Below, piece by piece: positions 1,292-58,153 of a DNA stretch of 64,000 nucleotides (position 1 is its first letter; every line of letters begins with the position of its first letter). The position numbers and the translations under genes are program-made. The stretch lies in the IMG/VR virus record IMGVR_UViG_3300029590_000324. One strand, written 5' to 3'. This DNA comes from a virus. Taxonomy: Duplodnaviria; Heunggongvirae; Uroviricota; Caudoviricetes. The notes below the pieces were generated by a model. It was not told the DNA's origin and made no database searches. It worked only from the letters and a program-made list of their open reading frames with translations.

Positions 1292-2671
1292 ATGAAACCG
1301 AATAAACTTGAACGGTTTGTGAACGACCGAGAGCTGCATGAAAGAGCGCTTTCGCACATCGACCGCAAGGGACTCGATATGTGCGTGCTGTCCACGTTTT
1401 CGCAAGATGCAGCGTGGGCTCTTGCAGGCGACCTTATCGCTAATTGCAAAATCGAGTTCAAAGCCCCTGTAGAAATGTACATTGACAAGCTTACAGGCAA
1501 CTGGTTGACATTCGCCGAAGCAGAGAAGCGAAACTTTGAAGAAGTCCGCAAGCTTGCAGTTCTCGAAACGTTTGACCGAGTTCTGTGTAATACATTCTAT
1601 AAGATGTATTACGACGATTTTCACTACCTGATACATCCTAACTGTGTTTCTTACCGCAGGGGACTGTCAGCCGGCAAGACCGTAAAAGCTCTTGTCAGCG
1701 AGATGAACCGTAAGAAATGGTACAAAGGATACAAGCTTGACCTGAGCAAGTTCTTTGATACCGTAAATCGTGAAACGCTTGACAGAACACTCGATATTAT
1801 AACTCCCGATAAGGATTGTATCGATAACATAGTAATTAAACATTATCATGACGATACTATAATCGTAAACGGAAAACCCGAATACCGGTACAAGTCGCTC
1901 AGTCAGGGCAACCCTATTGCCTGTCTGCTGGCTGACCTGTGCCTGAGAGATATTGATGAAGCTGTAAGCAAGATGGATGTTATCTATTATCGCTATTCTG
2001 ACGATATCATAATCCTCGGCAGGGAAGCTGACCACGCCCTCGAAGTTATAAAGCAGATGCTCGAACCAAAGGGTGTAACTCTTAATCCTAAAAAGGTCAA
2101 AGCGTTGCAGGCAGATAAAGACTGGTTCGAGTTTCTGGGCTTTAAGATACGTGGCGACTTGATAACTGTGTCTGCGAAAACTCTCAGAGGTATCGAGCAG
2201 CATATAAAATCTGAAACGATACAGTGGAGCAGAGAACACAAAAGACTGGCTACCGAAGCAGAGACCAAGCGGATATGCAGGCGGCTCCAGAAGTATCTGT
2301 TCCTTGCATATGAAGAGAACAGCAACCAGTTCGGCATGTGTCAGTATCTGTTCGGAACCATTAACTGCAAACACGATATCGACATGATAGACAGGTATTG
2401 CAAAGACTGTTTAAGAGCAGTAATAACAGGTCGCAATAAGGTTTGGGGTCTCGGTTCTACAGATAATAACTCCAATTACACGATCCAGTTCCAGAAAGGA
2501 ATAAACGTTAAAGCTAACAGGGAAAGGACCGTGGCAGACGGAATAGATATGGTAAGGGCTGCCGGTTGGTACAGCCTTAATCATATGTACAAAGTCTATC
2601 ATACCGACCACGAACTCTGGCTGAGCGAGATAAACAAAATAAAAGGAGGTGTTATACATGACGCTGTATGA
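1292..2671 (+). CDS. reverse transcriptase (retron/group-II/UG-like lineage, not DGR type)
   Basis: RT motifs visible: SYRRGLSAGKTV (motif 1), KLDLSKFFDTV (motif 2/A), SQGNPIACLLADL (motif 4, QGxxxSP-like), YRYSDDIIILG (YxDD catalytic motif C), FEFLGF (motif 7); ~180 aa C-terminal extension with a Cys cluster. Confidence 0.85.
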   Translation: MKPNKLERFVNDRELHERALSHIDRKGLDMCVLSTFSQDAAWALAGDLIANCKIEFKAPVEMYIDKLTGNWLTFAEAEKRNFEEVRKLAVLETFDRVLCNTFYKMYYDDFHYLIHPNCVSYRRGLSAGKTVKALVSEMNRKKWYKGYKLDLSKFFDTVNRETLDRTLDIITPDKDCIDNIVIKHYHDDTIIVNGKPEYRYKSLSQGNPIACLLADLCLRDIDEAVSKMDVIYYRYSDDIIILGREADHALEVIKQMLEPKGVTLNPKKVKALQADKDWFEFLGFKIRGDLITVSAKTLRGIEQHIKSETIQWSREHKRLATEAETKRICRRLQKYLFLAYEENSNQFGMCQYLFGTINCKHDIDMIDRYCKDCLRAVITGRNKVWGLGSTDNNSNYTIQFQKGINVKANRERTVADGIDMVRAAGWYSLNHMYKVYHTDHELWLSEINKIKGGVIHDAV

Positions 2672-3101
2672 TGCGTTAATTGCAAAATCAGAATCGGGGC
2701 ATAAGCTCAGGTTCGATCTGGTCAAAAAGAATATCAGAATAGATAAGCGTGTCGTAATGGAAAACGGCAAGCTTGTAGCTGATATGATAGGCGGCGAAGT
2801 TATCGACTCGTTGGGGTCTCCTGTGTCCGGCTATGACGATCTGGTAACTCTTTACGAGAACTTTATTCATTCGTCACCGAGCAGTGAGAACAGCCGCAAG
2901 ACTTACCTGTTTAAACCTCTGTCTGCCGATGAGCTGAGCATGACCGACTTTTACCGTAACAATAGCCGAGACGTAATGCACGCAAAGCTTTGTGCCGCTA
3001 TTATAATCGGAAGTCTTAACGGTACCCTTAAATGGGAAACGCCCGGCTGGTTCCGTAAACTGACCGATAGGTTCATAATCTATCGCAGCTATATCCAGTA
3101 A
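2658..3101 (+). CDS. hypothetical protein translationally coupled to the RT (147 aa)
   Basis: GGAGG RBS lies inside the RT 3' end and the ATG overlaps the RT stop, so likely an RT accessory/effector; no known motif. Confidence 0.5.
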   Translation: MTLYDALIAKSESGHKLRFDLVKKNIRIDKRVVMENGKLVADMIGGEVIDSLGSPVSGYDDLVTLYENFIHSSPSSENSRKTYLFKPLSADELSMTDFYRNNSRDVMHAKLCAAIIIGSLNGTLKWETPGWFRKLTDRFIIYRSYIQ

Positions 3102-3144
3102 CCCGAAAACCATAAACCATACATATTAAAAGGAGAAATTTATT

Positions 3145-3978
3145 ATGACTAATAGCAATATGAACAACGCTAACCTTAACAACAGCAACCTCGATATGAA
3201 TGAGTTCGCAAAACTGGTGGCAAAGTCAATGCTCGATATGGCCAATACTCCAATCCCTACTGCCGACAATGATAACTCAGTTCCTGCACACGGTAAGTAT
3301 TTTGGCAAGACGATCTGCGGCGAAGTCTATAACCCCAGAACAACAAGACGTTGGATCTCCGCTCAGTTCATTAGACTTATGAGACAGGAGTGTGTCACCA
3401 CAAATATCAATCAGGTAATCGCAAATTTCTATACCTATAAGTACAGTATCCTCTATACCTGTAAGGAAGCTAAGCTGCTGGCTCACCTCAAAGATAACGA
3501 CCCCGTTGCATTTGAAGAGCGCAAGCATTTCTTTGATGTGAATAGCATCGCCGATATATTTATAAACTTCGCTAAGGAGTTCCAGCCCAGTCTTCAGAGT
3601 CTTATAAATACCGCTTGGTCATACTCAGACTTCGCTGTAATTGCAGAGGCTATTGAACTGGTAATTGCAAAGAGAGCGTTTGATATCCCCGAAGGCACAG
3701 GCATGAAGGGCGGCAGATACTTCAAGAACCACAAGCTTGCTAATGCGTTTATTCGCAGCTTCAAGAAGGCTGGTGCCTATTATACCTTAAAGAACTACAT
3801 TATGTTCGACAGAAGATTTGTCCTCCATTGGTTCGATGAAGTCTATACCAGAGAAAATGCTCTCAGAAAACTCAGACTTGAGATTCAGGCTCCTGACTAC
3901 TATTTTTATAAGGCACTTAAGGTTTCTATGGCGGAAAACTACATCAGCCTCAGCGATCCTTTTGCGAATATGGAATAA
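3145..3978 (+). CDS. hypothetical protein (277 aa), third gene of the RT operon
   Basis: AAAGGAG RBS; Asn-rich N terminus; no known motif. Confidence 0.5.
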   Translation: MTNSNMNNANLNNSNLDMNEFAKLVAKSMLDMANTPIPTADNDNSVPAHGKYFGKTICGEVYNPRTTRRWISAQFIRLMRQECVTTNINQVIANFYTYKYSILYTCKEAKLLAHLKDNDPVAFEERKHFFDVNSIADIFINFAKEFQPSLQSLINTAWSYSDFAVIAEAIELVIAKRAFDIPEGTGMKGGRYFKNHKLANAFIRSFKKAGAYYTLKNYIMFDRRFVLHWFDEVYTRENALRKLRLEIQAPDYYFYKALKVSMAENYISLSDPFANME

Positions 3979-4079: not shown

Positions 4080-5570
4080 TTCTTGATCTAAATGGTTTTA
4101 GTAAATCGCTGCGATTGAGAGTTATACTATTATAATTGTAACGGAGGAATACATGTGGTAACACGAAACAGTAATGGTGAATACGTTGTCAACGGCACAG
4201 TGCTCAGTTCTTACGATGCTTTCGATGTTTATAAATTCGTCAAGAGTGAATACAACGCAGAAGATATGGCGATGACTATCGAAGAAGAGTATGGTGCTCA
4301 GACAGAGGAAGAGGTAATTGCAAATCAAGAACTCTGGCATGACATACTGGATATGTATGAGGACTGCAGAAACAACGATGAGCAGTGGCATTACGACGCC
4401 GAATATGTTGTGTCCGAATTCCGCTCTGAGCTGGACGCTATAGCGGCAAATTACTAACTGCAAACCGACTTGTGAAAACAAAATTCAAGTCTGCAGCAAC
4501 ACGATCTCTCATTCTGGAGACCTCCAGAGTTCGAGATCGTTTATGCTGCCTCTTATCTAAATATCTTTAGTAAACATATGTTTCCACAAGCCGAATAATT
4601 CCTAATTCATAACACAAAATGCAATCAATAATCTCTCCCTCGGCGCTCAGTGATGCGTCACCCATCGCTTCACGCCGCTGTCGTGATTCTTCATATCTAA
4701 ATTACTTTAGCGACAATTTGGTGTTATGATTTCTTAATTCCCAGCGGCAACCTGTAAATTACGCATCTGGTCTGAAGCAAGAGTGTCAGGGATACTCCCT
4801 GAACTCTTCCTCAGACAAGATGGTATTATCTAAATCAATTTAGTGAACAACTGCTGTCGGGAATAGCCAATCTGATTTCTGTCCGTCCTAATGCAAACAT
4901 GTAATCCCTCAGATGAGAACCATCCAGCACACTGCTGGATGTTTCTCATCTCCGTGATACATATTATCTAAATGCTTTTAGCGAAAATTCGGCGGTCAGG
5001 AAATATATATCAATAATTGCAGTGCCTCAAATGCAGCAATGGTCATTGAGGAGCAACCGAAAAGTAGCCCGCTTTGCGGGCTAACTTCTCGGTGCGCCTC
5101 ACGACATTGTATCTAAAATCTTTTAGTGATATAATAGGTACTTCAATTAAATTCAGTAACCGTGATATCCAATATGCACTGCACCTTCGAAAGATGAGTC
5201 GATGACCCTCAATCAACTTCGTTGATTGAAGCGTCGATGACTCTTCTTTCAGAAGGTTCATATCTAAATTCCTTTAGCGATACCATGGATATTCCGGCCG
5301 CATAACCGAGTTTGGCAAACTGCATTTCGGGATCTTACACCGACGGGCACTATTCATACCTGACAAGTGCCCGACGTTTCAGATCCCTCATATCTAAACT
5401 GCTTTAGTAAATCGCCGCCAGGCTCGGTTCTGATAGCTGCAATCAGCATAATAACTTTGTACTATAGGAGGCGATCAGTCCAGTTACACTCCGCTTATCA
5501 GCGGGTGTCACGGACACTCACCTCCAATACATCTAAACCTTTGTAGAAAATATCTTGTTATGCTAATTGC
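4080..5570. repeat. array of 9 conserved palindromic ~25-bp motifs (consensus yATCTAAAtnnyTTTAGyrAa) spaced ~135 bp apart, alternating with unique GC-rich imperfect hairpins
   Basis: Motif copies near 4085, 4556, 4693, 4828, 4963, 5109, 5259, 5390 and 5528. Each unique spacer contains a long inverted repeat, e.g. ACGATCTC..GAGATCGT, AGCCCGCtttGCGGGCT, GGGATCT..AGATCCC. No ORF of 60 aa or more on the + strand between 4460 and 5600. Confidence 0.7.
4155..4457 (+). CDS. acidic hypothetical protein (100 aa, GTG start)
   Basis: GGAGG 7 nt upstream of GTG; lies between the first and second copies of the repeat motif. Confidence 0.4.
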   Translation: MVTRNSNGEYVVNGTVLSSYDAFDVYKFVKSEYNAEDMAMTIEEEYGAQTEEEVIANQELWHDILDMYEDCRNNDEQWHYDAEYVVSEFRSELDAIAANY

Positions 5571-11358: not shown

Positions 11359-11675
11359 AAAAGATATCTTATGCTGAACTTGTTAAAAATGAAAATCTTA
11401 TTCTCTGCAATAACATCACGAATCTTGAGCTTGAGCTTTATTGCGGTAATGATTACGATGAAGAAGATGATTATCCTTGCGATATCTATCAGTATTATCT
11501 TATCGACCAGAGTTTTGCCGATTATCTGGCAAGAGCAACCGATGAAATCGTATACTATTGCGACGAACTTGATCTTTATGTATGGGGAGTGACTCACTTT
11601 GGCACTCCTTGGAACGGCGTTTATCTTAATGTCAAAACCTTTGATGAAATGTGCGCCGACGGTACATACGATTAA
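11355..11675 (+). CDS. acidic hypothetical protein (106 aa)
   Basis: AGAGGAG RBS; last gene of the + strand block before the lysogeny module. Confidence 0.5.
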   Translation: MKKISYAELVKNENLILCNNITNLELELYCGNDYDEEDDYPCDIYQYYLIDQSFADYLARATDEIVYYCDELDLYVWGVTHFGTPWNGVYLNVKTFDEMCADGTYD

Positions 11676-12220
11676 CTGCGGTCATGCTTATATTCCCAAA
11701 TGAAATCTGCAAATTGTCCATAGACCCGGCGCTCTAAAGATGACTTAAGAAAAGCATTACGTTGATACAGCACTGCCATTCTCTTTGCCCTTATTTCAGC
11801 TGCCGTTTTGGATATATTGCAAATCTCAGATATTTCATCTGCCGAATGAATATCACAGCCCCAAAGCACACACGCAGGAGCAAGAATGCCAATCGCAAAT
11901 CTTTCTGCCTCATACTCATCGTCGGTGGGGATGATAATATGGCCCAGCTCGTGAGCTATAGTGTATCGTCGTGCTTGGTATATTTCGGTGTCTCTTATAA
12001 TGATATAATATCTGTTGTTCTCGATAACTGTTTTTCCTCTCTGCTCGGCGGCCAAAACATAAGGACTTTCAGTCGGCAGAACAGAATCTTCTATTACTTC
12101 GGAATTGTAATGATTGCAAATCTGAGACAGTTTGACAGGGAGCGCTTTAATGTTGCAGTTGATCAAACATTGCCACGCTGCATTTCTGGCTCGTCTGTAT
12201 TTTTCATACAAAAAAATCAC
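11672..12220 (-). CDS. ImmA/IrrE-family zinc metallopeptidase (anti-repressor protease)
   Basis: HEXXH motif (IAHELGHII); immediately downstream of and co-oriented with the S24 repressor gene. Confidence 0.65.
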   Translation of the reverse strand: MIFLYEKYRRARNAAWQCLINCNIKALPVKLSQICNHYNSEVIEDSVLPTESPYVLAAEQRGKTVIENNRYYIIIRDTEIYQARRYTIAHELGHIIIPTDDEYEAERFAIGILAPACVLWGCDIHSADEISEICNISKTAAEIRAKRMAVLYQRNAFLKSSLERRVYGQFADFIWEYKHDRS

Positions 12221-12269: not shown

Positions 12270-13040
12270 TTAGTAATTGTTAGTAGATTTGGAGATGTTG
12301 CGTAAACTGTAACTGCGAGCAGCGAGCATCTGAGGTTCTTCGTTCATATAGTACCCGATGACTTTGCCAAAAATTTCGATCTTATGGTCTGTAGTTATAA
12401 CCGAATATTTGGAATTATAAGAATGAAGACCATCTTCCTGATAAACTTTAAACAGGGGACAACCATCAACTATGGCAATAACTTCATCTCCATATCGGAT
12501 CTCACAATTACGGTTTACCCAAACAATGCAGCCATTGGGATATTCAGGCTCCATGCTATCTCCGTCAATCGGAATTCCACAATCTGCACCGACAGGGATT
12601 TCGTCAATAGGAAACGACTCTTTTTCAAAAGAATCATCTTCCGTAAAGGGGAAAGAAACACCTGCGCCTGCAGCGATAACCGCAACATCCATTTTGCGCA
12701 TAGAGATTTTTCGTCTTTTGTTTTGAGATTCTACAAGTCTATCGGATATTTCAGAACAGCGACCGATAAAACGCTGTTGTTCATTATCAGGCAGCGAGTG
12801 GAAGACATTTAATAATGCTTTGTCGTTCTCAGATAATGATATTTTATCAAACAATAGGTTGTCAACGGTAACGTTAAGGTATCTTGCGATTTTAACTACA
12901 ATATCAAGAGTTATCTTAGAAGTCGGTTTCTTTTCCCACTGGCTGAATAAGCTCTTGTTACAGCCAATAGCAGCTGCAACGGAAGCTTTAGTCTTTCCGC
13001 TGTTTACTATTTTCTGTATTATGGTTTCACTGTATTCCAT
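12270..13040 (-). CDS. phage CI/LexA-like repressor (N-terminal XRE HTH plus C-terminal S24 peptidase)
   Basis: N terminus KASVAAAIGCNKSLFSQWEK (HTH); C terminus GDSMEP (S24 Ser-Lys dyad signature). Confidence 0.8.
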   Translation of the reverse strand: MEYSETIIQKIVNSGKTKASVAAAIGCNKSLFSQWEKKPTSKITLDIVVKIARYLNVTVDNLLFDKISLSENDKALLNVFHSLPDNEQQRFIGRCSEISDRLVESQNKRRKISMRKMDVAVIAAGAGVSFPFTEDDSFEKESFPIDEIPVGADCGIPIDGDSMEPEYPNGCIVWVNRNCEIRYGDEVIAIVDGCPLFKVYQEDGLHSYNSKYSVITTDHKIEIFGKVIGYYMNEEPQMLAARSYSLRNISKSTNNY

Positions 13041-13322
13041 ATTTCAATATTACCTCGTAAATTGTTGTATAGTTTCTTAATTGTATCTTTGTCGATAATA
13101 AACAAAGATGAATATAATTTGAAAAAACACTTGACTTTACGTTCAAAAGCGTATATAATCATATTATAAGTTGAATATTCTCAACTTTAGTATTATTATA
13201 CCACATTTCGTGATAAAAGTCAAGTAAACTAATTATTTCTTGTCATACACATTTGCTGTCCGATTTTCCGACCAGATCGTGTGCTACAATTAGTATGGCA
13301 AAATATATAAGGAGGTCTAAAG
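13041..13322. promoter_or_regulatory. divergent promoter/operator region of the lysogeny switch
   Basis: TTGACT (13131-13136), 17-nt spacer, TATAAT (13154-13159); perfect inverted repeat ATCTTTGT-N10-ACAAAGAT at 13084-13109 as candidate operator; TGCTACAAT extended -10 near 13280 upstream of the + strand hicA-like gene. Confidence 0.55.
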
Positions 13323-13520
13323 ATGCTTATAAAAGAATATTCTGTGCGAGAAGTGCAGGATATATTATCACGGAATGGGTTTACATATCTTAGAACTCAC
13401 GGCAGTCATCGTATTTATTCAAACGGTAATTGCAGCGTTTCAATTCCGTCTCAGAAAAAGACAGTTAATAAAATGCTGTTTCTGAGAATTATTAAAGAAA
13501 ACAATTTGATATTAAATTAA
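13323..13520 (+). CDS. hicA: HicA-family (YcfA-like) mRNA interferase toxin homologue
   Basis: NGFTYLRTHGSHRIY..VSIP..LRIIKEN aligns with the HicA consensus GW..VRQKGSH....VP.H..L..GTL..ILKQAGL, including the catalytic His; GGAGG RBS. Confidence 0.6.
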   Translation: MLIKEYSVREVQDILSRNGFTYLRTHGSHRIYSNGNCSVSIPSQKKTVNKMLFLRIIKENNLILN

Positions 13521-13536
13521 ATGGAGGATTTTACAA

Positions 13537-13776
13537 ATGGAAAATATGAATAGAATTATGGCACTTTCCCAGATGAATGATGTAGTCGATTTTGCAACGG
13601 TCGTAAGAGAAGCGGCAGACAAAGCACAGGAAAGATTTGATAAGTGGTCCGAAAAAACTCAGGAGAGCGAAACGGGCGAAACAATGCAGGAATATATCGA
13701 TCATCTCAATTCCGCTGCTGACGCTTTCGATGAAGCCTTTTCCGAACTGAATGAAGCTATAGAAATGGACGTGTAA
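13537..13776 (+). CDS. acidic hypothetical protein (79 aa); positional candidate for a non-HicB antitoxin
   Basis: Immediately downstream of hicA where hicB normally sits, but lacks the HicB RNase-H-like or RHH features. Confidence 0.4.
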   Translation: MENMNRIMALSQMNDVVDFATVVREAADKAQERFDKWSEKTQESETGETMQEYIDHLNSAADAFDEAFSELNEAIEMDV

Positions 13777-13788: not shown

Positions 13789-13974
13789 ATGGAAGTAATT
13801 ATACTAATTATCATTTTTGCATATCCTTTAATTTTCTTTCTTGTCCAATCAGTTGAAGCCGACGATGAAAGAGAAGCTAAAGCCGCCGAACAGGCTGCTC
13901 GTGAAGACTTGATGAGGAGACTTGCAGAAGCAAGAAAGCGCAATGCAGAATTGCGAAATAAGAAAGGAGAATAA
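13789..13974 (+). CDS. small membrane protein (61 aa)
   Basis: N-terminal hydrophobic helix IILIIIFAYPLIFFLV followed by a charged coiled-coil tail. Confidence 0.45.
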   Translation: MEVIILIIIFAYPLIFFLVQSVEADDEREAKAAEQAAREDLMRRLAEARKRNAELRNKKGE

Positions 13975-13976
13975 TA

Positions 13977-15158
13977 ATGCTTGGATTGGTAAGTACCATT
14001 TTCGCATGGCTTGGCATTGGTGGTGCTGTGGTGCATGAAAAGGTTAAAGAAACATGTGTAGATGCAAAATTAGAAGCCGCTAAAGAATCCAGAATAGCCG
14101 CAGCTGAATATGCCAGAGTCGGTAGCATTGAAGAAAAGATTGCAAATATTAACAAGGCGACAGAGCTGGGGCTTATTTATGATGAAAAATTCCAAATAAG
14201 TATAACATTGACGATTCTTGAGTTTGCGGCACGTCGTGATGAAGATATCTCTTCTTCAGATATTAACAGGTTTAATGGAACCGTTTTTTTTAATGGAGAT
14301 CAATTTCCATCTCCTTTACTCGATAAGGAAAAAATAGATACTGTTCGTCGTTTTTTTGATTATCATGATTTTAGGATCATGGCATATGTTGCAAAGAACA
14401 GTGATGAATCAAAATACATTGAGGGGCTTACATGTAGAATCCTTAACATTCTGGGGTATTATTATGATGAAATTGTGATGGAAAAGCTTACTCATACTTC
14501 GGAATTTAGGCTTATGACTAAATGTATTTATGATCCCTATGATAAAAGTGGTCCTTTTTCACCTCGTCCCGGGTATCTGGAACTGTTTGATAAATATCAT
14601 ATTTTGTATATAAATTATCGTCAATCCGACCTTGACAATCTTTTGCCATTGGGAAAAGCAGAAAAATTAAGAAAAGCAAAAGCCGTTGGGTTATATTACG
14701 ACAGCGATGTTCTGGAAAGAATTACTTACGGAATTGCAAATCGTCGTCCCAATAATGCTCGAAACCTATTTATCGAAACACTCTTTGGACAGCCTCAAAA
14801 GCATTTATTTTACTCAAGGGAAGAAGAAATCATAAATCAAAATTTTAAAAACGTTTGCAAAGTGCTGGAAGTCGTATTGTGTCTTGAAGATCCTATTTAT
14901 TTAAAGAGATTCATGTGCAAGCTGCTGAATTGTCTTGGTTATTATTACGATGAACAATATATGCAAAACTGGCTGGATACAAAAGAGTTTTGCCATGCGG
15001 AATGTTCCAAATATAGAATGGATGAAAAAGCCAATAACCCCAAGTGCCTTCACCCTGACAGCAAAGAAATTCTGGAAAGAAATGCAGATATGCTGGCAGA
15101 AGAACTTCCGCCCGACACATGGAATAGAAATTATCAGAAAGGCAGCGAGCAAGTATGA
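13977..15158 (+). CDS. hypothetical protein (393 aa) with N-terminal TM helix and internal LNxLGYYYDE repeats
   Basis: TAATAATG start/stop overlap with upstream ORF; repeated segments RILNILGYYYDEIVMEKLTHTSEF and KLLNCLGYYYDEQYMQNWLDTKEF. Confidence 0.55.
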   Translation: MLGLVSTIFAWLGIGGAVVHEKVKETCVDAKLEAAKESRIAAAEYARVGSIEEKIANINKATELGLIYDEKFQISITLTILEFAARRDEDISSSDINRFNGTVFFNGDQFPSPLLDKEKIDTVRRFFDYHDFRIMAYVAKNSDESKYIEGLTCRILNILGYYYDEIVMEKLTHTSEFRLMTKCIYDPYDKSGPFSPRPGYLELFDKYHILYINYRQSDLDNLLPLGKAEKLRKAKAVGLYYDSDVLERITYGIANRRPNNARNLFIETLFGQPQKHLFYSREEEIINQNFKNVCKVLEVVLCLEDPIYLKRFMCKLLNCLGYYYDEQYMQNWLDTKEFCHAECSKYRMDEKANNPKCLHPDSKEILERNADMLAEELPPDTWNRNYQKGSEQV

Positions 15159-15550
15159 AATTAATCGATAACTTCAATCTTGAATTCAGCAAGAATATCA
15201 TCACATCAACGAATATTCACAACGGATTTGCAGAAATGAAGCTGGACTGGTTCCAGCTTCCGCTTGCAGTCCGGGAGAGATTGGTAATTGATACCTTAGA
15301 AAAGGAACTTGACTATGATGACCAGTGGTATTACTTTAGCATATTTGTTCCACTGCTTAATGGAATACCAAACTTTGGAGATACATACTATTATATAGAT
15401 GAATATGCTCCCAACGAACAGATGTACGAGGAGTTTGTAAAAACAAATTTTGATTTTCCGGGCTTCGTTAAAGCTTCTGTTGAAATAATAGATGTTGTTA
15501 ATCTTGCTTCGGCTTTATTGCCAAGCAAAAATATGAAAAAGCCCGCCTGA
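15155..15550 (+). CDS. hypothetical protein (131 aa); possible non-canonical antitoxin/partner of the MazF-like gene
   Basis: ATGA overlap with upstream ORF; no MazE/AbrB-like features. Confidence 0.5.
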   Translation: MKLIDNFNLEFSKNIITSTNIHNGFAEMKLDWFQLPLAVRERLVIDTLEKELDYDDQWYYFSIFVPLLNGIPNFGDTYYYIDEYAPNEQMYEEFVKTNFDFPGFVKASVEIIDVVNLASALLPSKNMKKPA

Positions 15551-15573
15551 TTCTATGAAAGGAGAACTTGTCA

Positions 15574-15984
15574 ATGAATGTTAAAACAGGAGATGTAATT
15601 AGAATAACACTGCCAAACGCTATCGGGCATCAGCAGGGCGGAGAAAGATATGCCGTCGTTGTTTCAAACAACATTGGAAATAAAGTTTCTCCTACAGTAG
15701 AGGTTCTTCCGGGAACTACAAAAAGAGATGACAGCACTCTTCCAACTCATGCACACTTTAAAGCCGGAGAAATTCAAGGACTGCCAAGAAATACGACTTT
15801 TGAAGCCGAAAGCCAATGGGTCATTAACAAATTTCAGATAATTGAAATTGTTGGGCATCTGAGCGATAAACAGCTTGAAAGAATTGCGACAGCCATGATA
15901 ATGGCGACTCCTCTTGTCTTAAAAGCTTTTGAGAGCAATGTGCATAAGACTCAGCGCTTTCAGAAAATCCTGAATTTCTCTTGA
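15574..15984 (+). CDS. mazF: MazF/PemK/EndoA-family endoribonuclease toxin
   Basis: VKTGDVIRITLPNAIGHQQGGERYAVVVSNNIGNKVSPT...LPTHAHF aligns closely with B. subtilis EndoA [39 protein letters not shown]...LPTHVEI; AAAGGAG RBS. Confidence 0.8.
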   Translation: MNVKTGDVIRITLPNAIGHQQGGERYAVVVSNNIGNKVSPTVEVLPGTTKRDDSTLPTHAHFKAGEIQGLPRNTTFEAESQWVINKFQIIEIVGHLSDKQLERIATAMIMATPLVLKAFESNVHKTQRFQKILNFS

Positions 15985-16009
15985 CATATTTGAAAACGTG
16001 TGTTATAAT
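15981..16009 (+). promoter_or_regulatory. strong sigma70-type promoter
   Basis: TTGACA (15981-15986), 17-nt spacer, TATAAT (16004-16009). Confidence 0.65.
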
Positions 16010-16061
16010 GAAGCAAATACAAGCATATACTACTTTATCATAATACATGGAGTGTGATAAC

Positions 16062-17300
16062 ATGAATGTGTCAAAAAGAAACGAAGCCATAGCGATATTA
16101 AAAAGACTATTTTCGACAAAGCTTAACGTGTGCCAAGATATTTATTCCGCTGAGCTTATAGATACCGGCAAAATGACATGGGGAGAACTTGGCCCTCTTA
16201 TGTCTAATCTCGACTTAGAAAACGTATCAGATATTGTACTGTGCTGGTTGTATGAAGCTGTGTCGAAACACAGTGCTGCACTGAAAATTCCTGATGTTTC
16301 ACATTTTTTTACCGCCTCGGAAATCACCGAGGCTAATTCTGCTTATATCAAAAGAAGCTATTCTAAATTGCCAATAGCATTTCCGATACTGGCAAGACTT
16401 ACGGACAATGATAATTATCTGACGGCATTATCCATACAGGATATTGCGAATCTGAAATCTGTTGGCATTATACAGTGGAAAGAAGGAATGCAAAGAGAAA
16501 CTGTCATTACCAAGCTTTCCGATAATGACTTTATAAGTCATATCAAATATGATGACAACCGTGCCAGAGCAATCGGAAAGTCTATGAGCGACGGAACGTT
16601 CTTTCCAAATTCTCTTCGTTGGCATATCGTGGCGGACGAATCTGACTATGAGGTAAAAGATGATAGAGTTATATTGAAATCAGGGTATATTGCCGAGATC
16701 GATGGTCAGCATCGAGATAAAGGCAGCGAGTATGCTCTTATGAATAACCCGAATATTATAATGACTATGCCCATTGTTCTGACAATAGGCTCTCGTGCAA
16801 CTGCTCAGAGAATCATCAATCAAGACGAAGAACGTGCCCCCATCAATAAGAGCGTAGTGGCTCAATACAAATATACTATGGGAAACAATGTTCTGAAAAA
16901 GATTATTGGCAGCGGCGAGCTTGACGGCATTTACAAGTTCTGTGATACTCAGCAGGGAATTCAGGTCGGTCAGGGCTTTATTCTTAAATCGGATTTTGCA
17001 GCTGCTATTGATAAGTATTATTCTGCAAGAACGGTCAAGGAACAGAGTAAAGTTGCAGAATGGCTTATTGAATTTTTTAATGAGCTTGCAAGTATCAATT
17101 ATGATGCGTTTGTAGGTTATAAAAAGAGTATCTCTGCCAAAAATTCTGTATTTCCGATCTATGTTTATTTAAGTAGTAAACTTCAGAATCGTTCAGGCTG
17201 GGAAGATGAACTTGCTGCTGTTTTCCCTAAATTGGATTTTTTAAATTCAAAAAAGAGTATAGAAATAATCAATAAAGAAATGGGGGAGAAGAATGTATAA
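16062..17300 (+). CDS. DGQHR-domain protein (DndB-like, ParB/Srx superfamily)
   Basis: Literal IDGQHR motif (YIAEIDGQHRDKG); GGAG RBS 9 nt upstream. Confidence 0.6.
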   Translation: MNVSKRNEAIAILKRLFSTKLNVCQDIYSAELIDTGKMTWGELGPLMSNLDLENVSDIVLCWLYEAVSKHSAALKIPDVSHFFTASEITEANSAYIKRSYSKLPIAFPILARLTDNDNYLTALSIQDIANLKSVGIIQWKEGMQRETVITKLSDNDFISHIKYDDNRARAIGKSMSDGTFFPNSLRWHIVADESDYEVKDDRVILKSGYIAEIDGQHRDKGSEYALMNNPNIIMTMPIVLTIGSRATAQRIINQDEERAPINKSVVAQYKYTMGNNVLKKIIGSGELDGIYKFCDTQQGIQVGQGFILKSDFAAAIDKYYSARTVKEQSKVAEWLIEFFNELASINYDAFVGYKKSISAKNSVFPIYVYLSSKLQNRSGWEDELAAVFPKLDFLNSKKSIEIINKEMGEKNV

Positions 17301-18231
17301 CGAGGAAAAAAAGCTGGAATTCTTGGCAAGCATGAAAGAAGGAAGCTATACGGACATGTCTTGCAATACCTATATGTATAAGTTCGAAAAATTTTCCGAC
17401 ACTGAAGAGCTTCTTAAAAAAGACCTATATGATTTTAATTATAACGATTTTAAACTTTTGTTTGAGAGAAATAAAATCATTAACACCAATACCATGCTTA
17501 ACAGCAAGAGTATTATAAATAGGTATATAGAATGGGCAACCAAGATGGGATACTGTTCAATCGATACCATAAATGAACTTAAAAGAGTTATAAGCGAAGA
17601 CATAAATCCAAGATGGAAAATCATAACTGAAATGTTTGCAGACGAAAATGATTTGTTGGATTGTATCAGCAGTGTTATGATGGAACAGGATTCCTCGATG
17701 ATAATTTGGTATCAGGCTTTTTATGGTTTGTATTGGAATGGATTATGCAATGTAGAAATCTATAATCTGAAAAAATCAGACGTGCAGGGCAATCGTATAA
17801 AAGTTGGAGACGATACTATTATAGTATCAGATCGTTTTGCTGAAATAATTAATGAGTATAAGGACATGGATAGTGTCGTAATAAACGATAGTGTTATGCC
17901 ATTTGCTCAGTCTATTTATCTGATAAGAGCTAAGAATAAAAAGAATTCCCTTGGCCAGATCAACGATAATTTCCATGCTCAGCGCAGAAGAGCATGGGAC
18001 AGAATGGAGGTTGATATTGATAATAAGTATTATGGTAAAGTTCTCGTCCCCACTTGGATAATGAGATCCGGTAATTTTTATCGTGCATATCTCGACGAGC
18101 AGAAGGGAAAGGAAATCACATCAAACAATATATCGGATTATTTTAGAGTGTTTGCTATTTCAAATCAGAAAAAAATTGGTTATAGCACATATCGTGATTA
18201 TCAGAATTGGAAAAACGTTTTCTATAAATGA
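17293..18231 (+). CDS. hypothetical protein (312 aa) overlapping the DGQHR gene end
   Basis: 8-nt overlap with the upstream gene implies coupling; no clear tyrosine-recombinase R..HxxR..Y pattern. Confidence 0.5.
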   Translation: MYNEEKKLEFLASMKEGSYTDMSCNTYMYKFEKFSDTEELLKKDLYDFNYNDFKLLFERNKIINTNTMLNSKSIINRYIEWATKMGYCSIDTINELKRVISEDINPRWKIITEMFADENDLLDCISSVMMEQDSSMIIWYQAFYGLYWNGLCNVEIYNLKKSDVQGNRIKVGDDTIIVSDRFAEIINEYKDMDSVVINDSVMPFAQSIYLIRAKNKKNSLGQINDNFHAQRRRAWDRMEVDIDNKYYGKVLVPTWIMRSGNFYRAYLDEQKGKEITSNNISDYFRVFAISNQKKIGYSTYRDYQNWKNVFYK

Positions 18232-18287
18232 TCCGCTGCCTGTGATATGGCAGTACATAAAAAATTTTTAGCAACATCCACAATCGC

Positions 18288-18316
18288 TTGACAAGTTTAA
18301 ACTCATCTGATATAAT
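18288..18316 (+). promoter_or_regulatory. sigma70-type promoter upstream of tRNA-Lys
   Basis: TTGACA (18288-18293), 17 nt, TATAAT (18311-18316); upstream element CATCCACAATCGCTTGACA shared with the promoter at 41440. Confidence 0.6.
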
Positions 18317-18532
18317 ATAAATACAGTCAAGGGAGAACGGTTCAGAAATGAGCCGTTATTCCAAGAAGCCCAAAACATATTGGATATAATGAACAATCTT
18401 TCCTCAACTCTTGATGGGGCTGCTGGGTGGAATATCGGAGATGTTATTTAACCTGTAACTGTAAGTTACAAAAATGTTCATAATTATATTTTTGTCAGGT
18501 ATAAATTGCAAAATCAAAGTATGAAAAATTAT

Positions 18533-21289: not shown

Positions 21290-22600
21290 CCAGCCGCAAT
21301 CCCATTGGCTTTAGACGATGGGTTAAGCTCGCTGTGATATAACAGTGATGTAGAAAGGCGGTAACAAACCAATGTTTAAATCATTCAAATATAGGCTTTA
21401 TCCAAATAAAACACAAGAAATACAAATTCAGAAAACATTCGGTTGTTGTAGATTTGTTTATAATCAGACGCTTGCTTATAGGAAAAATCTTTATGAAGCA
21501 GAAAAGAAATCTATAAACAAGATAGGTTGTAACAACTATGTTAATCAAGTTCTTAAAAAAGAATATGAATGGCTTAAAGAGGTAGACAAATTTGCTCTTA
21601 CTAATTCTGTTTATAATATGGATAGCGCATATCAGAAATTTTTCAAAGAACATTCTGGTTATCCTAAATTCAAAAGTAAGAAGAATAATCATAAATCTTA
21701 TTCTACTAACAGTACAAACAACAACATAGAGGTTGATTTCGAGAAGAACAGAATTAAGCTTCCAAAACTTAAATGGGTAAAAGCAAAAGTTCATAGAGTA
21801 TTTGTTGGTATAATTAAATCTGCAACTTTATCTCAAACGCCAAGTGGCAAGTATTTTATTTCTATTCTTGTAAATTGTGAGAATTTTCAGATGAAGTCTA
21901 CTGGTGCTATGGTTGGTATTGATTTAGGTATCAAGGATTTAGTCATCACATCTGATGGTGAAAAGTTTGAAAACTCCAAAACTCTTTACAAGTATGAAAA
22001 GAAACTTGTAAAGGAGCAAAGAAAACTTGCTAAAAAGACAAAGGGTAGCAATAATAGGAACAAACAGCGTATTAAAGTCGCAAGACTGTATGAGAAGATA
22101 ACAAATATCCGTGTTGATAATTTGCATAAAATTTCTCACAAACTAATTCAGGAAAACCAACTGATAGTGAGTGAGGACTTAAAAATTAGCAATATGGTTA
22201 AAAATCATAATCTTGCAAAGAGTATTTCTGATTGTAGTTGGTATGAACTTACAAGGCAGTTACAGTACAAGGTTCACTGGAATGGTAGACAGTATATCAA
22301 GATTGATACTTACTTTCCAAGTAGTCAGACTTGTAGTGTATGTGGGTATATTAATAAGGAAACTAAGGATTTATCTGTAAGAGAGTGGACTTGTCCTTGT
22401 TGTAATACACGTCACGACAGAGATATAAACGCTGCTATAAATATTTTGTATGAAGGATTAAGGCTGATTAAATCAGCCTAAATAATAATGTAGTACGGTA
22501 GGAACTATCGGAATTTACGCTTGTGAAGTTAGTAGGTTACGAGGACGATGAAGCAAGAAGCCGACTGGCTTTAGACGGTCGGTAGTTCACAAGCAGTATT
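21290..22600 (+). mobile_element. IS200/IS605-family element carrying only tnpB (IS1341-like), with subterminal hairpins
   Basis: Left hairpin CCCATTGGCTTTAGACGATGGG (21301-21322) and right hairpin CCGACTGGCTTTAGACGGTCGG (22561-22582) share the loop TGGCTTTAGACG and flank the tnpB ORF; boundaries approximate. Confidence 0.5.
21372..22481 (+). CDS. tnpB: TnpB (IS605 OrfB-family RNA-guided nuclease-like transposase accessory protein)
   Basis: N-terminal [16 protein letters not shown] typical of OrfB; C-terminal RuvC-like region with zinc finger CSVCGY..CPCCN; 369 aa. Confidence 0.8.
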
Positions 22601-22822: not shown

Positions 22823-23131
22823 ATGACAAATAATTATAATGCTTCGAATTATGCCAAAGGCTCCGATGGTGCAAAGCTGAATGACGAAAATCTTAAGGAA
22901 ATGAATGCTTCCGGTAAGTGTAATACTTGTAAATATTTTCAGTTCAGAGGTTACAAATGTACGAAGAAGACTGAGGAAGGCAATTTTGTTCGTTCTGCCA
23001 TGATGCCAATTACATATACCGAAACAACTTCAAAGGGCAATTTTATCAACGTGTTAAAGCCCTCTTCTTGCAAGGATTATGAGAGTAAGGGTAAGCGCAA
23101 GATTGAAAAGACAGAGGAGGCGGCCGAATGA
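22823..23131 (+). CDS. Cys-containing hypothetical protein (102 aa)
   Basis: ORF after the IS right end; weak RBS. Confidence 0.4.
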   Translation: MTNNYNASNYAKGSDGAKLNDENLKEMNASGKCNTCKYFQFRGYKCTKKTEEGNFVRSAMMPITYTETTSKGNFINVLKPSSCKDYESKGKRKIEKTEEAAE

Positions 23132-23700
23132 AACTTCTCGTAGTGGTTGATATGCAGAATGACTTTATCGATGGGTCTCTCGGTTCTGATGCAGCACAGG
23201 CAATCGTTCCTAATGTAGTTGAAAAAATCAAATCTGCTGATAAAAACACGGCAATTTTATTCACAAAAGATACTCATTATAACGATTATGCTGAAACTCT
23301 TGAGGGGAGAAAACTTCCTGTTCAGCACTGTCTCGCTCGTTCTTTCGGCTGGATGATAAATGATGATGTCGCTGACGCATGGTATCACTCCAATACATAT
23401 GCAATATTGGAGCCCGAAGTCAGAGAAGGGAACATCGTTCTTAAGAACACATTTGGCAGTACCCAGCTTATGAGTTTACTTATTCGTGAAGGTAAAATGT
23501 TCGACGAAATTGAATTTATCGGGCTGGACACCGATATCTGTGTTGTATCCAATGCCCTCATGGTGAGAGCTGCACTTCCTGATATGCCAATCGTTGTTGA
23601 CGCCTCCTGTTGTGCCGGATCAACACCTGAAAAGCATAAGGCGGCACTCGAAGTTATGAAGAGCTGTCAGATTGATATCATAAACGAGAGCGAGGTATAA
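23128..23700 (+). CDS. pncA: nicotinamidase (isochorismatase family)
   Basis: VVVDMQNDF (catalytic Asp), TKDTH..PVQHCL (metal-binding His pattern as in PncA WPxHCV), GLDTDICV (catalytic Cys). Confidence 0.7.
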   Translation: MKLLVVVDMQNDFIDGSLGSDAAQAIVPNVVEKIKSADKNTAILFTKDTHYNDYAETLEGRKLPVQHCLARSFGWMINDDVADAWYHSNTYAILEPEVREGNIVLKNTFGSTQLMSLLIREGKMFDEIEFIGLDTDICVVSNALMVRAALPDMPIVVDASCCAGSTPEKHKAALEVMKSCQIDIINESEV

Positions 23701-23702
23701 CT

Positions 23703-24527
23703 ATGATTTACATAAATAATGCACCTTTTGGAGATAAAAGTTTTCCTAATGGTGAAACCATTTTTGATATGGGAACTTATTATGTCAAGGATGCAGTAAA
23801 TGAAATCAAGCTTGTATATGAATCGGACGCTGATATCTTTAAGCTCATTGTGGCCAAGAAGTGTCTTGATGAACAGTCAAAGGAAAACAGAGTTGATTAC
23901 GGTTGGGATGAAGCAATCATAACTCTGACCATTGCATATATGCCATATTCAAGAATGGATAGGCAGATGTCTTCAATGGCGTTCAGCCTCAGATATGTTG
24001 CCGATATCATCAATTCTCTTAATTTTGATTCGGTAACAATACTTACACCTCACTCCAATGTAACTCCGGCACTTATTAACAATGTCAGAACCATATACGA
24101 TATCGGCGTTAATGAGGCATATAAATACAGTTCCCCCGATTACGTATTCTATCCCGACAACGGAGCCTGCAAGTCGTTTGGAGAACATCTCAAATATACT
24201 AATTACTTTTACGGTAACAAGAAGCGTGAGCTTTCAACCGGAAAGATTGAAAAGTATGAGCTGGTTAATGCCCCCGATATTAAGGACAAAAACATTCTGA
24301 TAATCGATGACCTTTGTGTTAAGGGCGGCACATTTATTCTTGCAGCTCAGGCTCTTAAAGCGGCAGGTGCAGCCAAGGTAGATTTGTTTGTAACTCATCT
24401 TGAAAAGGCTGTGTATAAAGGAATACTGCTCACGACAGACTGGATTGATCATATCTATACAGTCAATACACTGGAAATCCCCATTGAAAACGACAAAATA
24501 ACAGAAATAAGAGGTAATTTCATATGA
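23703..24527 (+). CDS. ribose-phosphate pyrophosphokinase (Prs)-family protein; candidate ADP-ribose pyrophosphokinase (Adps-like)
   Basis: IAYMPYSRMDRQ resembles Prs IPYFGYARQDRR; PRPP-binding loop IIDDLCVKGGT resembles VLVDDMIDTAGT; stop overlaps the NAMPT-like gene start. Confidence 0.6.
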   Translation: MIYINNAPFGDKSFPNGETIFDMGTYYVKDAVNEIKLVYESDADIFKLIVAKKCLDEQSKENRVDYGWDEAIITLTIAYMPYSRMDRQMSSMAFSLRYVADIINSLNFDSVTILTPHSNVTPALINNVRTIYDIGVNEAYKYSSPDYVFYPDNGACKSFGEHLKYTNYFYGNKKRELSTGKIEKYELVNAPDIKDKNILIIDDLCVKGGTFILAAQALKAAGAAKVDLFVTHLEKAVYKGILLTTDWIDHIYTVNTLEIPIENDKITEIRGNFI

Positions 24528-25990
24528 ATGAAATAATGCCAATGCTTCTTTGTGATTTTTACAAAGAGTGTATGATGGTTCAGCAGAGCCCTAAGCTCAC
24601 TAAGCTCGTATCCTATATGACACCAAGAATGTCCAGAGTACACGATGACAAACTCGTCTTCTTCGGACTTCAGGCGTTTATCGAGAAGTATCTTGTGGAA
24701 TATTTCAATAACGAATTTTTCAATAAGCCTGTCGATGAGGTCTGCGCCGAGTATGAAAGAGTTCTCGGCAGCACTCTCGGCAAGGGTACATATGATACCG
24801 CAAAAATCAGAGCTCTTCACGAGCTGGGCTATTTGCCTGTTAAGATATCGGCACTTCCCGAGGGAACCCGTGTCCCCATGCACGTTCCTATGCTGGAAAT
24901 AAGCAGCACACACCCTGATTTTATATGGGTCGGACAGTTCCTTGAAAGTCTTATGAGTGCTTCACTCTGGCATCCAATGGTGTCTGCAAATGTGGGTTAT
25001 TGGTATCGTCAGATCGTTGATAAGTTCTACGACATCAGCGTTGAAGATGACGTGCCCAGAGCCAAGGCTCTCGGAGACTTTTCATTCAGAGGTCAGCATA
25101 GTCTTGAAAGTGCGACTGCCTCTTCTGCCGGTTGGTGTACTTCGTTTCTGAATACAGCGACAGTACCCGCAATTCCTTGGCTGGAAAAATATTATCACTG
25201 CGATTGTACCAAGGAGCCCGTAGCTTACGGGGCGGTATCAACCGAACATTCAGTGATGACCAGCAACTTCTCTATCGACGGCGATGAGATTACATTTCTC
25301 CGTAAGCTGCTGACTGAGCTTTATCCCAATAACAGTTTCAGTGTAGTATGCGATTCTTATGATTACTGGAATGTAGTCAATAATATTTTGCCTCAGCTAA
25401 AGCCTGAAATTATGGCTCACAACGGCTGTATGCTGATAAGAGGGGACAGCGGAGACCCTGTTGAGATAGTGACCGAAACTGTGTTTGCACTCTGGGAAGA
25501 ATTCGGCGGAACAGTCAACAGCAAGGGTTATAAGGTACTCGACCCTCACGTTAAGGCGATTTACGGGGACAGTATCACCGTTCAGCGCTGTCAGCAGATA
25601 TACCAGAGGCTCATTGACAACGGTTTTGCCTGCAATAATGTAATCCTCGGTGTCGGCAGCTTCTCAATGATGTGCGTTGAAGAGGACAATATGCTCAAGC
25701 CTTTTACCCGTGATACATATTCAATAGCTATTAAGGCGACTTATGGTGAGGTAGATGGTAAGCCCATAATGATTTTTAAGAATCCCAAGACAGATACGGG
25801 ATTCAAGAAGTCCCAGAAGGGTATGTGCTTTATCTATAAAGAGCACGGCGAGATAAAGTATCAGGACGGCTTTACAGCTGAGACAGTTCCTGTCAATGGC
25901 TTGTTCCGCACAGTGTTCGAGGATGGTAAATGCTATAATACTCAGACGCTTGCTGACGTTCGTAATACGCTTTACGAAGGAGGATTCTGA
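24524..25990 (+). CDS. nicotinamide phosphoribosyltransferase (NAMPT/NadV) family enzyme; candidate Namat-like
   Basis: Several blocks align with human NAMPT: ALPEGTRVP~AVPEGFVIP, LGDFSFRGQHSLESA~LHDFGYRGVSSQETA, SVVCDSYDYWN~SVVSDSYDIYN, LIRGDSGDP~IIRPDSGNP, NSKGYKVLDPHVKAIYGDSI~[20 protein letters not shown]. Confidence 0.85.
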   Translation: MNEIMPMLLCDFYKECMMVQQSPKLTKLVSYMTPRMSRVHDDKLVFFGLQAFIEKYLVEYFNNEFFNKPVDEVCAEYERVLGSTLGKGTYDTAKIRALHELGYLPVKISALPEGTRVPMHVPMLEISSTHPDFIWVGQFLESLMSASLWHPMVSANVGYWYRQIVDKFYDISVEDDVPRAKALGDFSFRGQHSLESATASSAGWCTSFLNTATVPAIPWLEKYYHCDCTKEPVAYGAVSTEHSVMTSNFSIDGDEITFLRKLLTELYPNNSFSVVCDSYDYWNVVNNILPQLKPEIMAHNGCMLIRGDSGDPVEIVTETVFALWEEFGGTVNSKGYKVLDPHVKAIYGDSITVQRCQQIYQRLIDNGFACNNVILGVGSFSMMCVEEDNMLKPFTRDTYSIAIKATYGEVDGKPIMIFKNPKTDTGFKKSQKGMCFIYKEHGEIKYQDGFTAETVPVNGLFRTVFEDGKCYNTQTLADVRNTLYEGGF

Positions 25991-41430: not shown

Positions 41431-41448
41431 TTCCACATCCACAATCCC

Positions 41449-41477
41449 TTGACATATTGGATATAATAATATATAAT
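41449..41477 (+). promoter_or_regulatory. sigma70-type promoter with conserved phage element
   Basis: CCCTTGACATATTGGATATAAT; TTGACA 41449-41454, 17 nt, TATAAT 41472-41477. Confidence 0.6.
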
Positions 41478-41543
41478 AGTAACTGTAACAAAAACAAATC
41501 CCCTCGATAAGGGGGATATAATACTATGAAAGGATGAAAAACA

Positions 41544-58067: not shown

Positions 58068-58085
58068 AATAATTTCCAAATTCCC

Positions 58086-58114: not shown

Positions 58115-58153
58115 ATAAATAAGTTAAGCAATATTGGAAAGGATTGATGTCAT

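Follow-up and report, generated by a model that had tools for sequence, protein, structure and literature searches.

The stretch of DNA considered here, a 64,000-nucleotide (nt) piece of the Caudoviricetes record IMGVR_UViG_3300029590_000324 in IMG/VR, is referred to in its full length as the window. Its plus strand carries, between 13323 and 15984, a run of genes that begins with a HicA-family toxin-like gene and ends with a gene for a MazF/PemK-family endoribonuclease, which is preceded by a gene for an acidic protein of 131 amino acids (aa), orf131 (hereafter the partner), and followed by homologues of the phi3T and SPbeta lysogeny genes sroE and sroF. A preliminary description had treated the last four genes of this run as a self-contained operon coupling a membrane sensor to a MazF-type effector. 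Comparison of related loci instead resolves the partner and MazF genes as the invariant unit and, on balance, this pair probably represents a phage-borne MazF with an inhibitor of a new family, built into an SPbeta-type lysogeny operon. The genes and promoters of the region, with expectation values (E) and isoelectric points (pI), are:

11672-12220, minus strand: ImmA/IrrE-like metallopeptidase gene, 3' of the repressor gene (Peptidase_M78, E 3.3e-4, just below the gathering score; PHROG 1914, E 4e-33; PHROG 87 metallo-protease, E 1.7e-12).
12270-13040, minus strand: LexA/CI-like repressor with a helix-turn-helix (HTH) domain, an S24 peptidase domain and a GDSMEP motif, divergent from the toxin operon (Pfam Peptidase_S24, E 8.9e-14; HTH_3, E 6e-6; PHROG 4 transcriptional repressor, E 3e-33).
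13131-13223, both strands: predicted facing promoter pair, with a plus-strand TTGACT-17-TATAAT at 13131-13159 reading towards HicA and a minus-strand TTGACT-17-TATAAT at 13223-13195 reading towards the repressor.
13323-13520, plus strand: HicA-family toxin-like gene with a GSH motif, which opens the operon (pI 10.0; PHROG 353 'toxin'; Pfam HicA_toxin, E 2e-8, exceeding the gathering score).
13537-13776, plus strand: orf79, a very acidic small protein of 79 aa (PHROG 4068; pI 4.05; net charge -14).
13789-13974, plus strand: orf61, a small membrane protein with an N-terminal anchor and a charged helical tail; variable accessory gene (Kyte-Doolittle 2.76 over residues 1-19).
13977-15158, plus strand: orf393, an N-terminal anchor followed by two repeats of about 125 aa; variable accessory gene (Kyte-Doolittle 1.96 at the N-terminus; self-alignment).
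15155-15550, plus strand: orf131, the partner and putative MazF inhibitor; acidic (pI 4.4), of predicted alpha/beta fold, from a small new family (adjacency, profile search, AlphaFold).
15574-15984, plus strand: MazF/PemK-family endoribonuclease, extended at its C-terminus by about 25 conserved aa (Pfam PF02452, E 4.4e-15; pI 9.4).
15981-16009, plus strand: predicted promoter of extended sigma-70 type (TTGACA-17-TG-TATAAT; 12 of 12 consensus matches), which overlaps the stop codon of MazF and reads into the sroE-like gene.
16047-17300, plus strand: SroE/YopQ homologue (DGQHR/DndB-like), 417 aa (profile and BLASTP).
17293-18231, plus strand: SroF/YopR (MrpR) homologue with a tyrosine-recombinase fold, 312 aa (Pfam MrpR_N_CB, E 8.8e-14; PDB matches).

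The four open reading frames (ORFs) on which the preliminary description was built, orf61 to MazF, exist with these boundaries and are called as genes in many related contigs; given in addition that they are under purifying selection relative to diverged relatives (ratios of nonsynonymous to synonymous substitution rates, dN/dS, of 0.29 for orf61, 0.26 for orf393, 0.09-0.16 for orf131 and 0.04 for MazF), they are not chance ORFs. The overlapping start and stop codons said to link them are present at the orf393/orf131 junction (ATGA, 15155-15158) and absent from the other two, as orf61 and orf393 are separated by a 2-nt gap and orf131 and MazF by a 23-nt spacer that carries its own GGAG Shine-Dalgarno sequence. 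The operon is also larger than the four genes proposed, with HicA and orf79 tightly upstream behind the near-consensus promoter at 13131-13159; transcription most likely starts at 13131, with a unit that takes in both of these genes. The operon is probably controlled by the facing LexA-like S24 repressor, whose position is the same in the related loci L001, L026 and L032. In a consensus scan, each of the two facing promoters matched at 11 of 12 positions, and their mirrored -35 regions form a perfect 10-nt inverted repeat. The near-consensus promoters face each other about 90 bp apart between the S24 repressor gene and HicA, a layout that suggests a transcriptional-interference switch.

Related loci were found in three ways, through homologues of orf393, through homologues of orf131 and through the MazF subclade, and were then scored with family profiles. 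They fall into ten architectures, given here in the order of transcription:

The window, L001-L004 and others: HicA, orf79, orf61, orf393, partner, MazF.
L005 and L007: order as in the window, with a single-repeat orf393 of 236-238 aa.
L014-L016: HicA, orf79, partner, MazF, with no membrane protein.
L011-L013: HicA, a 62-aa protein, a 172-aa protein with an N-terminal anchor, partner, MazF, an orf79-like gene.
L020 and L021: a partner copy on its own (observed in L020), inserted DNA carrying an integrase, MazF, then its own partner downstream.
L022: HicA, a 309-aa protein with a C-terminal anchor, partner, MazF.
L026: HicA, two membrane proteins, orf79, partner, MazF.
L030: HicA, orf79, a 140-aa protein, partner, MazF.
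L032 and L033: the S24 repressor diverging from partner and MazF with nothing else, then sroE and sroF (the minimal form).
L009: a 125-aa protein with an N-terminal anchor, partner, MazF.

The partner family adjoins MazF in all ten architectures, upstream in nine and downstream in one (L020 and L021), with short spacers of approximately 10-70 nt as read from the coordinates across the related loci. There was no MazF of this subclade without a partner in the related loci examined, and one partner copy (L020, 1448-1867) occurred without an adjacent MazF. This orphan copy is 100% identical to the L011 partner (4571-4963) over its first 99 residues and differs at 11 of the last 30, so that its C-terminus looks like a recombination junction at which the downstream MazF was replaced, rather than the product of decay. 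The remainder of the cassette varies. The orf393 family is present in two of the ten architectures, with orf61 found only together with it; other N- or C-terminally anchored proteins, bearing no significant similarity to orf393, take its place in six, and a membrane protein is lacking in the remaining two (L014-L016 and L032). The four genes thus do not behave as one unit, and the conserved adjacency suggests that the 131-aa protein is essentially a conventional partner of MazF with no need for the upstream genes, contrary to the joint role they had first been given. Downstream, sroE followed by sroF is present in eight architectures, the other two having no sroE-like gene.

HicA is present in eight of the ten architectures. 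The place of orf79 varies, being after HicA in the window, directly before the partner in L026 and after MazF in L011, and the family was not detected by profile scoring in L009, L020, L022 or L032. Because its position shifts or it goes undetected in related loci, orf79 is not a fixed HicA antitoxin; it has no HicB match in Pfam, PHROG or NCBIfam, and could be a DNA mimic or an antirepressor.

The assignment of the 15574-15984 product as a strong EndoA/MazF homologue was borne out by a PF02452 match that scored 56.3 bits (cut-off 23.1) and spanned profile positions 1-105 of 109, by PHROG 1936 (E 3.5e-17, labelled 'moron') and by the closest solved structures, which are those of Bacillus subtilis EndoA (4me7, E 4.7e-13, together with 4mdx and 1ne8, all at E of about 5e-13; approximately one-third identical). 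There was no sign of a catalytically dead enzyme: the residues aligned with EndoA Arg25 and Thr48, for which a catalytic role is reported in the literature on structure 4MDX, are kept in the window and invariant in 17 members of the subclade, and the phage MazF accordingly looks catalytically competent as judged from its residues. The subclade also shares the C-terminal extension of about 25 aa, which EndoA lacks. Among 185,579 species genomes there was no MazF relative above 36% identity, and a scan of species genomes likewise gave no relative of orf131. A tblastn search of MazF against 50,697 phage records returned only ordinary MazF genes at no more than 39% identity, and the apparently full-length match, in Enterocloster phages, proved to be a MazF of canonical 118-aa form, beside a zinc-ribbon gene unrelated to the partner. 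In the isolated Enterocloster phage CB473P1 (L048, OP172755.1, 3509-4342), the 118-aa MazF gene lies among hypothetical genes with a 148-aa zinc-ribbon protein upstream and no MazE, and may be a further phage MazF with a non-canonical partner.

The partner family is small and narrowly distributed. A HMMER profile of orf131 recovered 16 clusters (at 50% identity) from 1.84 billion representative proteins, of which 15 were true members of 110-144 aa and the sixteenth was a false match to cohesin-like repeats. Neither orf131 nor orf393 had a match in Pfam, PHROG, NCBIfam or PADLOC, nor did megablast of the region or tblastn of the two proteins return any match among the 50,697 phage records; little was gained by scanning viral and metagenome contigs with distant members of the partner family. 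The AlphaFold model of orf131, built from a 16-sequence alignment (predicted local distance difference test score, pLDDT, 83), comprises 4-5 strands, three helices and a disordered C-terminus, and had no fold match in structure searches. The absence of any MazE-, AbrB- or ribbon-helix-helix (RHH)-like protein upstream of MazF, already remarked upon in the preliminary description, therefore extends from the sequences of orf61, orf393 and orf131 to the predicted fold of orf131. The pI values of the two proteins are complementary (4.4 for the partner and 9.4 for MazF), and the partner diverges much faster than MazF, with 17-38% identity in distant pairs against 45-73%. Antitoxins usually diverge faster than their toxins, and the adjacency, charge, divergence and orphan-partner pattern are together what is expected of a toxin and its cognate inhibitor. 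The predicted helix at partner residues 88-96 carries a family-conserved Y-x-E-hydrophobic motif, and the MazF-binding helix common to MazE, AimX and YosL has the motif Y-x-E-M (PMC10769878); this resemblance, seen at the level of sequence, is counted as a lead and not as evidence.

The two genes 3' of MazF were initially labelled 'DndB-like' and 'MrpR-like recombinase'. The family profile of the former matched phi3T_96 (SroE; E 3.3e-20) and YopQ of SPbeta (E 4.1e-19), with BLASTP at 2.9e-12 over 334 aa, and the 312-aa product of the latter matched over its full length phi3T SroF (9rd5, E 4e-8) and SPbeta YopR (8bjv, E 2.8e-4; also 8a0a), with a profile match to phi3T_97 at E 1.6e-15 and tblastn matches almost all in SPbeta-family Bacillus phages. 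SroF, also known as MrpR, is the master repressor of the SPbeta family, with a recombinase fold whose recombinase activity has been lost (PMC10516654), and SroE is a second protein needed for lysogeny (bioRxiv 10.1101/2025.11.27.690993). In phi3T and SPbeta, activity of the host MazF (EndoA) promotes lysogeny, the MazE mimics AimX and YosL bind and block MazF and thereby permit lysis, and phi3T_93 and SPbeta YopM, encoded upstream in the sro operon, bind MazE such that MazF is freed (PMC10769878; bioRxiv 10.1101/2023.04.27.537455; PMC10516654); what sets off induction is Sar, an antirepressor under SOS control (bioRxiv 10.1101/2025.11.27.690993). With SroE and SroF homologues directly downstream, the likely biology of the pair shifts from abortive infection or exclusion to lysis-lysogeny control.

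Several further features bear on this relationship. The related viral contigs, at 111-146 kilobases (kb), are similar in size to SPbeta-type phages, and the window encodes a DNA polymerase III alpha subunit, a DnaB-like helicase and a DNA ligase. A promoter-linked repeat, CATCCACAATCSCTTGACA, with a consensus -10 element after it, occurs at 18259-18317 (repeat at 18275, directly 3' of the SroF-like gene), 41420-41478 (repeat at 41436) and 58075-58115, and is a candidate operator of the SroF-like repressor, by analogy with the SPBRE of SPbeta. HicA, orf79, orf61, orf393 and the partner showed no similarity to SroA-D, YopM-P, AimX or Sar; the arbitrium genes AimR and AimP were not noticed nearby, no search aimed at either having been made. 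No description of a phage-borne MazF in a SroE/SroF-type setting was found in the literature searched. Related elements occur in human-gut assemblies, on contigs of up to 583 kb.

A possible explanation that would unite these observations, and the one that on balance appears the most probable, is that a temperate Firmicute phage of about 140 kb took the MazF arm of the decision circuit into its own genome, so that the operon would supply MazF rather than free that of the host. The 131-aa partner would bind MazF and hold it inactive, as a type II antitoxin of a non-MazE kind, and would thereby serve as a brake, determining the time at which MazF acts. The activity of MazF, predicted to be toxic, would bias the decision towards lysogeny or stabilise lysogeny once established. 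The position of the pair, between the LexA-like HTH-S24 repressor with ImmA on one side and the SroE and SroF homologues on the other, would place it in the lysis-lysogeny control region, with promoter control by the S24 repressor.

UACAU, the cleavage site of EndoA, occurs 90 times on the coding strand of the window against 74 expected, a slight enrichment. A similar enrichment has been reported for phi3T and SPbeta. Across the ten gut-phage loci, the same word is under-represented in sroE and sroF (10 against approximately 21 expected) and over-represented in the partner genes (14 against 5.8 expected), counts that fit the lysogeny-control picture loosely. A test for avoidance of UACAU or ACA by the phage was negative, with the depleted words being palindromic and restriction-like. 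The most depleted words in the window were CCWGG, GGWCC, GANTC, CAATTG, ATGCAT, ATTAAT and GTATAC, which suggests restriction-site avoidance.

There are several points that weigh against a MazF-inhibitor pair dedicated to lysogeny. The signs of inhibition of MazF by the partner are indirect, consisting of pI, divergence and the lack of any toxin without a partner, and the partner has no HTH, RHH or AbrB match by family profiles or by fold; most type II antitoxins differ from it, as it is a folded protein of alpha/beta type. A single phage lineage and a single genomic slot account for all of the loci, and the adjacency is thus in part inherited synteny; in keeping with this, the correlations of pairwise identity between the partner and each of MazF, SroE, SroF and HicA are all high, and the coupling of partner with MazF is inseparable from that of partner with SroF. 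Membrane-anchored proteins lie upstream of the pair in eight of the ten architectures, such that a functional link to them is possible. The positions of EndoA E78-Q79, which are said in the 4MDX paper to contact RNA, read E-S in the phage MazF, and UACAU specificity cannot be assumed. The UACAU counts are exploratory, as they take EndoA specificity for granted and were made on related loci with a codon-shuffle null, and the TACAT-free gap over sroE-sroF in the window alone is not significant.

Among the alternatives, the one that survives best, although still unlikely, is that the pair, perhaps together with HicA and orf79, is generic prophage toxin-antitoxin (TA) cargo, an addiction or anti-phage module in a hotspot, uninvolved in the choice between lysis and lysogeny. 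The region from HicA to MazF is indeed highly mosaic, with unrelated genes and an inserted integrase block typical of moron or defence hotspots, the PHROG family of MazF is labelled 'moron', and the phage carries other defence and counter-defence cargo, namely a UG27 reverse transcriptase system, nicotinamide adenine dinucleotide (NAD) salvage genes, an RNA-repair ligase and a CRISPR-like array. However, the pair is fixed directly upstream of sroE-sroF in every architecture while its surroundings change, the MazF subclade was seen nowhere else (no relative above 36% identity in the species genomes), and a role for MazF is documented in the decision circuit of phages that share SroE and SroF (PMC10769878).

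An elaboration of the lysogeny reading, which we regard as doubtful, gives the membrane proteins a part in it. Under this scheme, the operon would be under SOS control and would encode the phage MazF and its new-fold inhibitor, with swappable membrane proteins, including the LGYYYDE-repeat protein orf393, tuning the release of MazF, for example by sensing superinfection or the state of the envelope; the UACAU-poor sroE-sroF transcripts would be spared and lytic transcripts cut.

Somewhat more doubtful again is the proposal that the 131-aa protein counteracts the SroF-like repressor as a Sar-like antirepressor and comes on upon cleavage of the S24 repressor, with MazF and HicA acting as unneutralised RNases that shut off host or lysogeny transcripts at induction or early in infection. 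In the minimal locus L032 the promoter that faces the S24 repressor has the partner as its first gene, mirroring the LexA-controlled sar near sroF in phi3T (bioRxiv 10.1101/2025.11.27.690993), the partner is acidic, and its predicted strands, helices and disordered C-terminus loosely recall the published Sar; the partner and SroF are also both fast-evolving. Against this, there was no sequence similarity (profile E 0.39; phmmer of Sar against all window ORFs, E > 1), and two PDB fold searches did not return Sar chain 9rgl_F, which is in the PDB sequence copy, its presence in the fold libraries being unconfirmed. Such a role would moreover leave unexplained the strict adjacency of partner and MazF, including the inverted order in L020 and L021, in an operon that has no other candidate antitoxin and a MazF with a dN/dS of 0.04.

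The membrane proteins themselves appear to be accessory. The transmembrane character first ascribed to orf61 and to the N-terminus of orf393 was supported by the strong hydrophobicity of both N-termini (Kyte-Doolittle 2.76 and 1.96), and the two LNxLGYYYDE repeats noted in orf393 are LNILGYYYDE and LNCLGYYYDE, which lie inside a genuine duplication within the protein, about 125 aa in length (the local self-alignment scored 92, and shuffled controls 30 +/- 4.7), each repeat carrying a GL(I/Y)YD and an LNxLGYYYDE motif. The homologues of orf393 are limited to those at least 81% identical and the single-repeat form, and orf61 had only sub-threshold matches to unrelated families in Pfam, PHROG, NCBIfam and PADLOC. 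A profile of the orf393 repeat unit had no significant match (E > 0.1) in the other membrane proteins or in orf131. The L026 and L030 membrane proteins share with orf393 an MLG...HE(K/N) anchor and an LGY(Y/V)(Y/V/W)D motif, and a YYY(I)DE(Y) string is present in the partner. The charged segment that follows the anchor is clearly basic in the L005 versions, which suggests an N-out, C-in topology; taken with the many cysteines of orf393, this would make the bulk of the protein cytoplasmic. For an accessory protein that is variable, tethered to the membrane and encoded in a prophage immunity region, the simplest role would be in superinfection exclusion or a similar function expressed in the lysogen, and we infer that orf61 and orf393 are lineage-specific accessory genes within the variable cassette between HicA and the pair, not required to neutralise MazF.

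The least probable account is that of the preliminary description, in which orf61, orf393, the 131-aa protein and MazF form one sensor-effector system for superinfection exclusion or abortive infection and a membrane event frees MazF: the tight packing of the genes, the ATGA overlap (suggestive of translational coupling), the anchored protein preceding the pair in eight of the ten architectures and the motifs shared by orf393 with the L026 and L030 proteins and the partner all lend themselves to it, but the orf393 family is confined to two architectures, is replaced in six by proteins without a significant match to its repeat unit, and is dispensed with altogether in two that keep partner and MazF intact, and no PADLOC model matches any of the four proteins. 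More widely, PADLOC gave no match at E <= 0.1 for any of the eight proteins from HicA to the SroF-like gene.

Other cargo is distributed across the window. A three-gene, phage-carried defence-associated reverse transcriptase (DRT) system occupies 1292-3978, with a UG27 reverse transcriptase (PADLOC RT_UG27, E 2e-84; Pfam RVT_1) and matches of the associated genes to RTas346 (2649-3101) and RTas337 (3145-3978). Just 3' of these genes, the ORF-poor interval 4086-5418 holds approximately nine copies of the palindromic TATCTAAAnnnnTTTAG with conserved flanks, which may represent iterons or an array bound by a protein, or have a connection with a DRT non-coding RNA. A NAD-salvage-type cluster at 23128-25990, comprising an isochorismatase/nicotinamidase, a phosphoribosyltransferase resembling phosphoribosyl pyrophosphate (PRPP) synthetase and a NAMPT, is reminiscent of phage NAD-reconstitution counter-defence. 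The gene at 44209-46407 encodes a 732-aa protein in which a P-loop kinase is fused with a calcineurin-like phosphatase and a T4 Rnl1-type RNA ligase, a Pnkp-like RNA repair arrangement of note in a phage that encodes two RNase toxins. A CRISPR-like array at 61721-62358, with ten copies of GTCACACCCTCACGGGTGTGTGAGTTGAAAT at a period of 64-67 nt, lies in the GC-richer end of the window, which may be phage or host flank. A TnpB gene (IS605 OrfB/Cas12f-like) is located at 21372-22481 and takes varying positions in related loci (L011 and L015), and an anaerobic ribonucleotide reductase, NrdD, at 55327-57534, points to a strictly anaerobic host.

If the preferred reading of a phage-borne MazF with its own inhibitor is correct, MazF would be controllable by a protein that is related to the known antitoxins neither in sequence nor in predicted fold, representing a new antitoxin family that at present is confined to one phage lineage. 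The connection of MazF with the choice of lysis or lysogeny, until now known from the Bacillus arbitrium phages alone, which exploit host MazEF, would then extend more widely, with phages of anaerobic gut Firmicutes that share SroE and SroF carrying the toxin themselves, beside the repressor genes. Such phages would offer a compact, self-contained system for how MazF promotes lysogeny, a step that the phi3T papers leave uncharacterised. The unit of study is also corrected, from the four-gene set to the two-gene pair together with sroE-sroF.

The region resembles several known systems in part. As in HicAB, a HicA-family protein with a GSH motif is followed by a small acidic protein; unlike HicAB, there is no HicB (no RNase H-like fold and no HTH or RHH match), and orf79 is not consistently beside HicA and goes undetected in two HicA-containing architectures. 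Type II TA systems are known to 'mix and match', with toxin families pairing with non-cognate antitoxin families, and the phage pair is predicted to share with these a conserved toxin fold and an unrelated neutralising partner, whereas its partner belongs to none of the antitoxin families or folds described so far and is extremely restricted in distribution. Relative to the MazEF systems of B. subtilis (EndoA/EndoAI, YdcE/YdcD), the toxin is homologous with Arg25 and Thr48 kept, and a small acidic gene adjoins it, normally upstream and across a short spacer; the partner, however, is not MazE, having no RHH, AbrB or SpoVT similarity by sequence or predicted fold, and is instead a folded alpha/beta protein of 131 aa from a family confined to one phage lineage, while the toxin differs in its C-terminal extension of about 25 aa and in the E-S at the positions of E78-Q79. 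The sro operon of SPbeta and phi3T (sroA-F, equivalent to yopM-R) shares the terminal order of SroE/YopQ then SroF/YopR, a similar phage size, upstream operon genes that deal with MazF activity, and induction tied to a SOS-type, LexA-like repressor. The two differ in the source of the toxin, since in Bacillus the MazF is that of the host and the phage has modulators only, whereas the gut phage encodes both a MazF and its new partner, and in the SOS sensor, which in the gut phage is an HTH-S24 repressor of the phage itself, with ImmA, in place of host LexA boxes.

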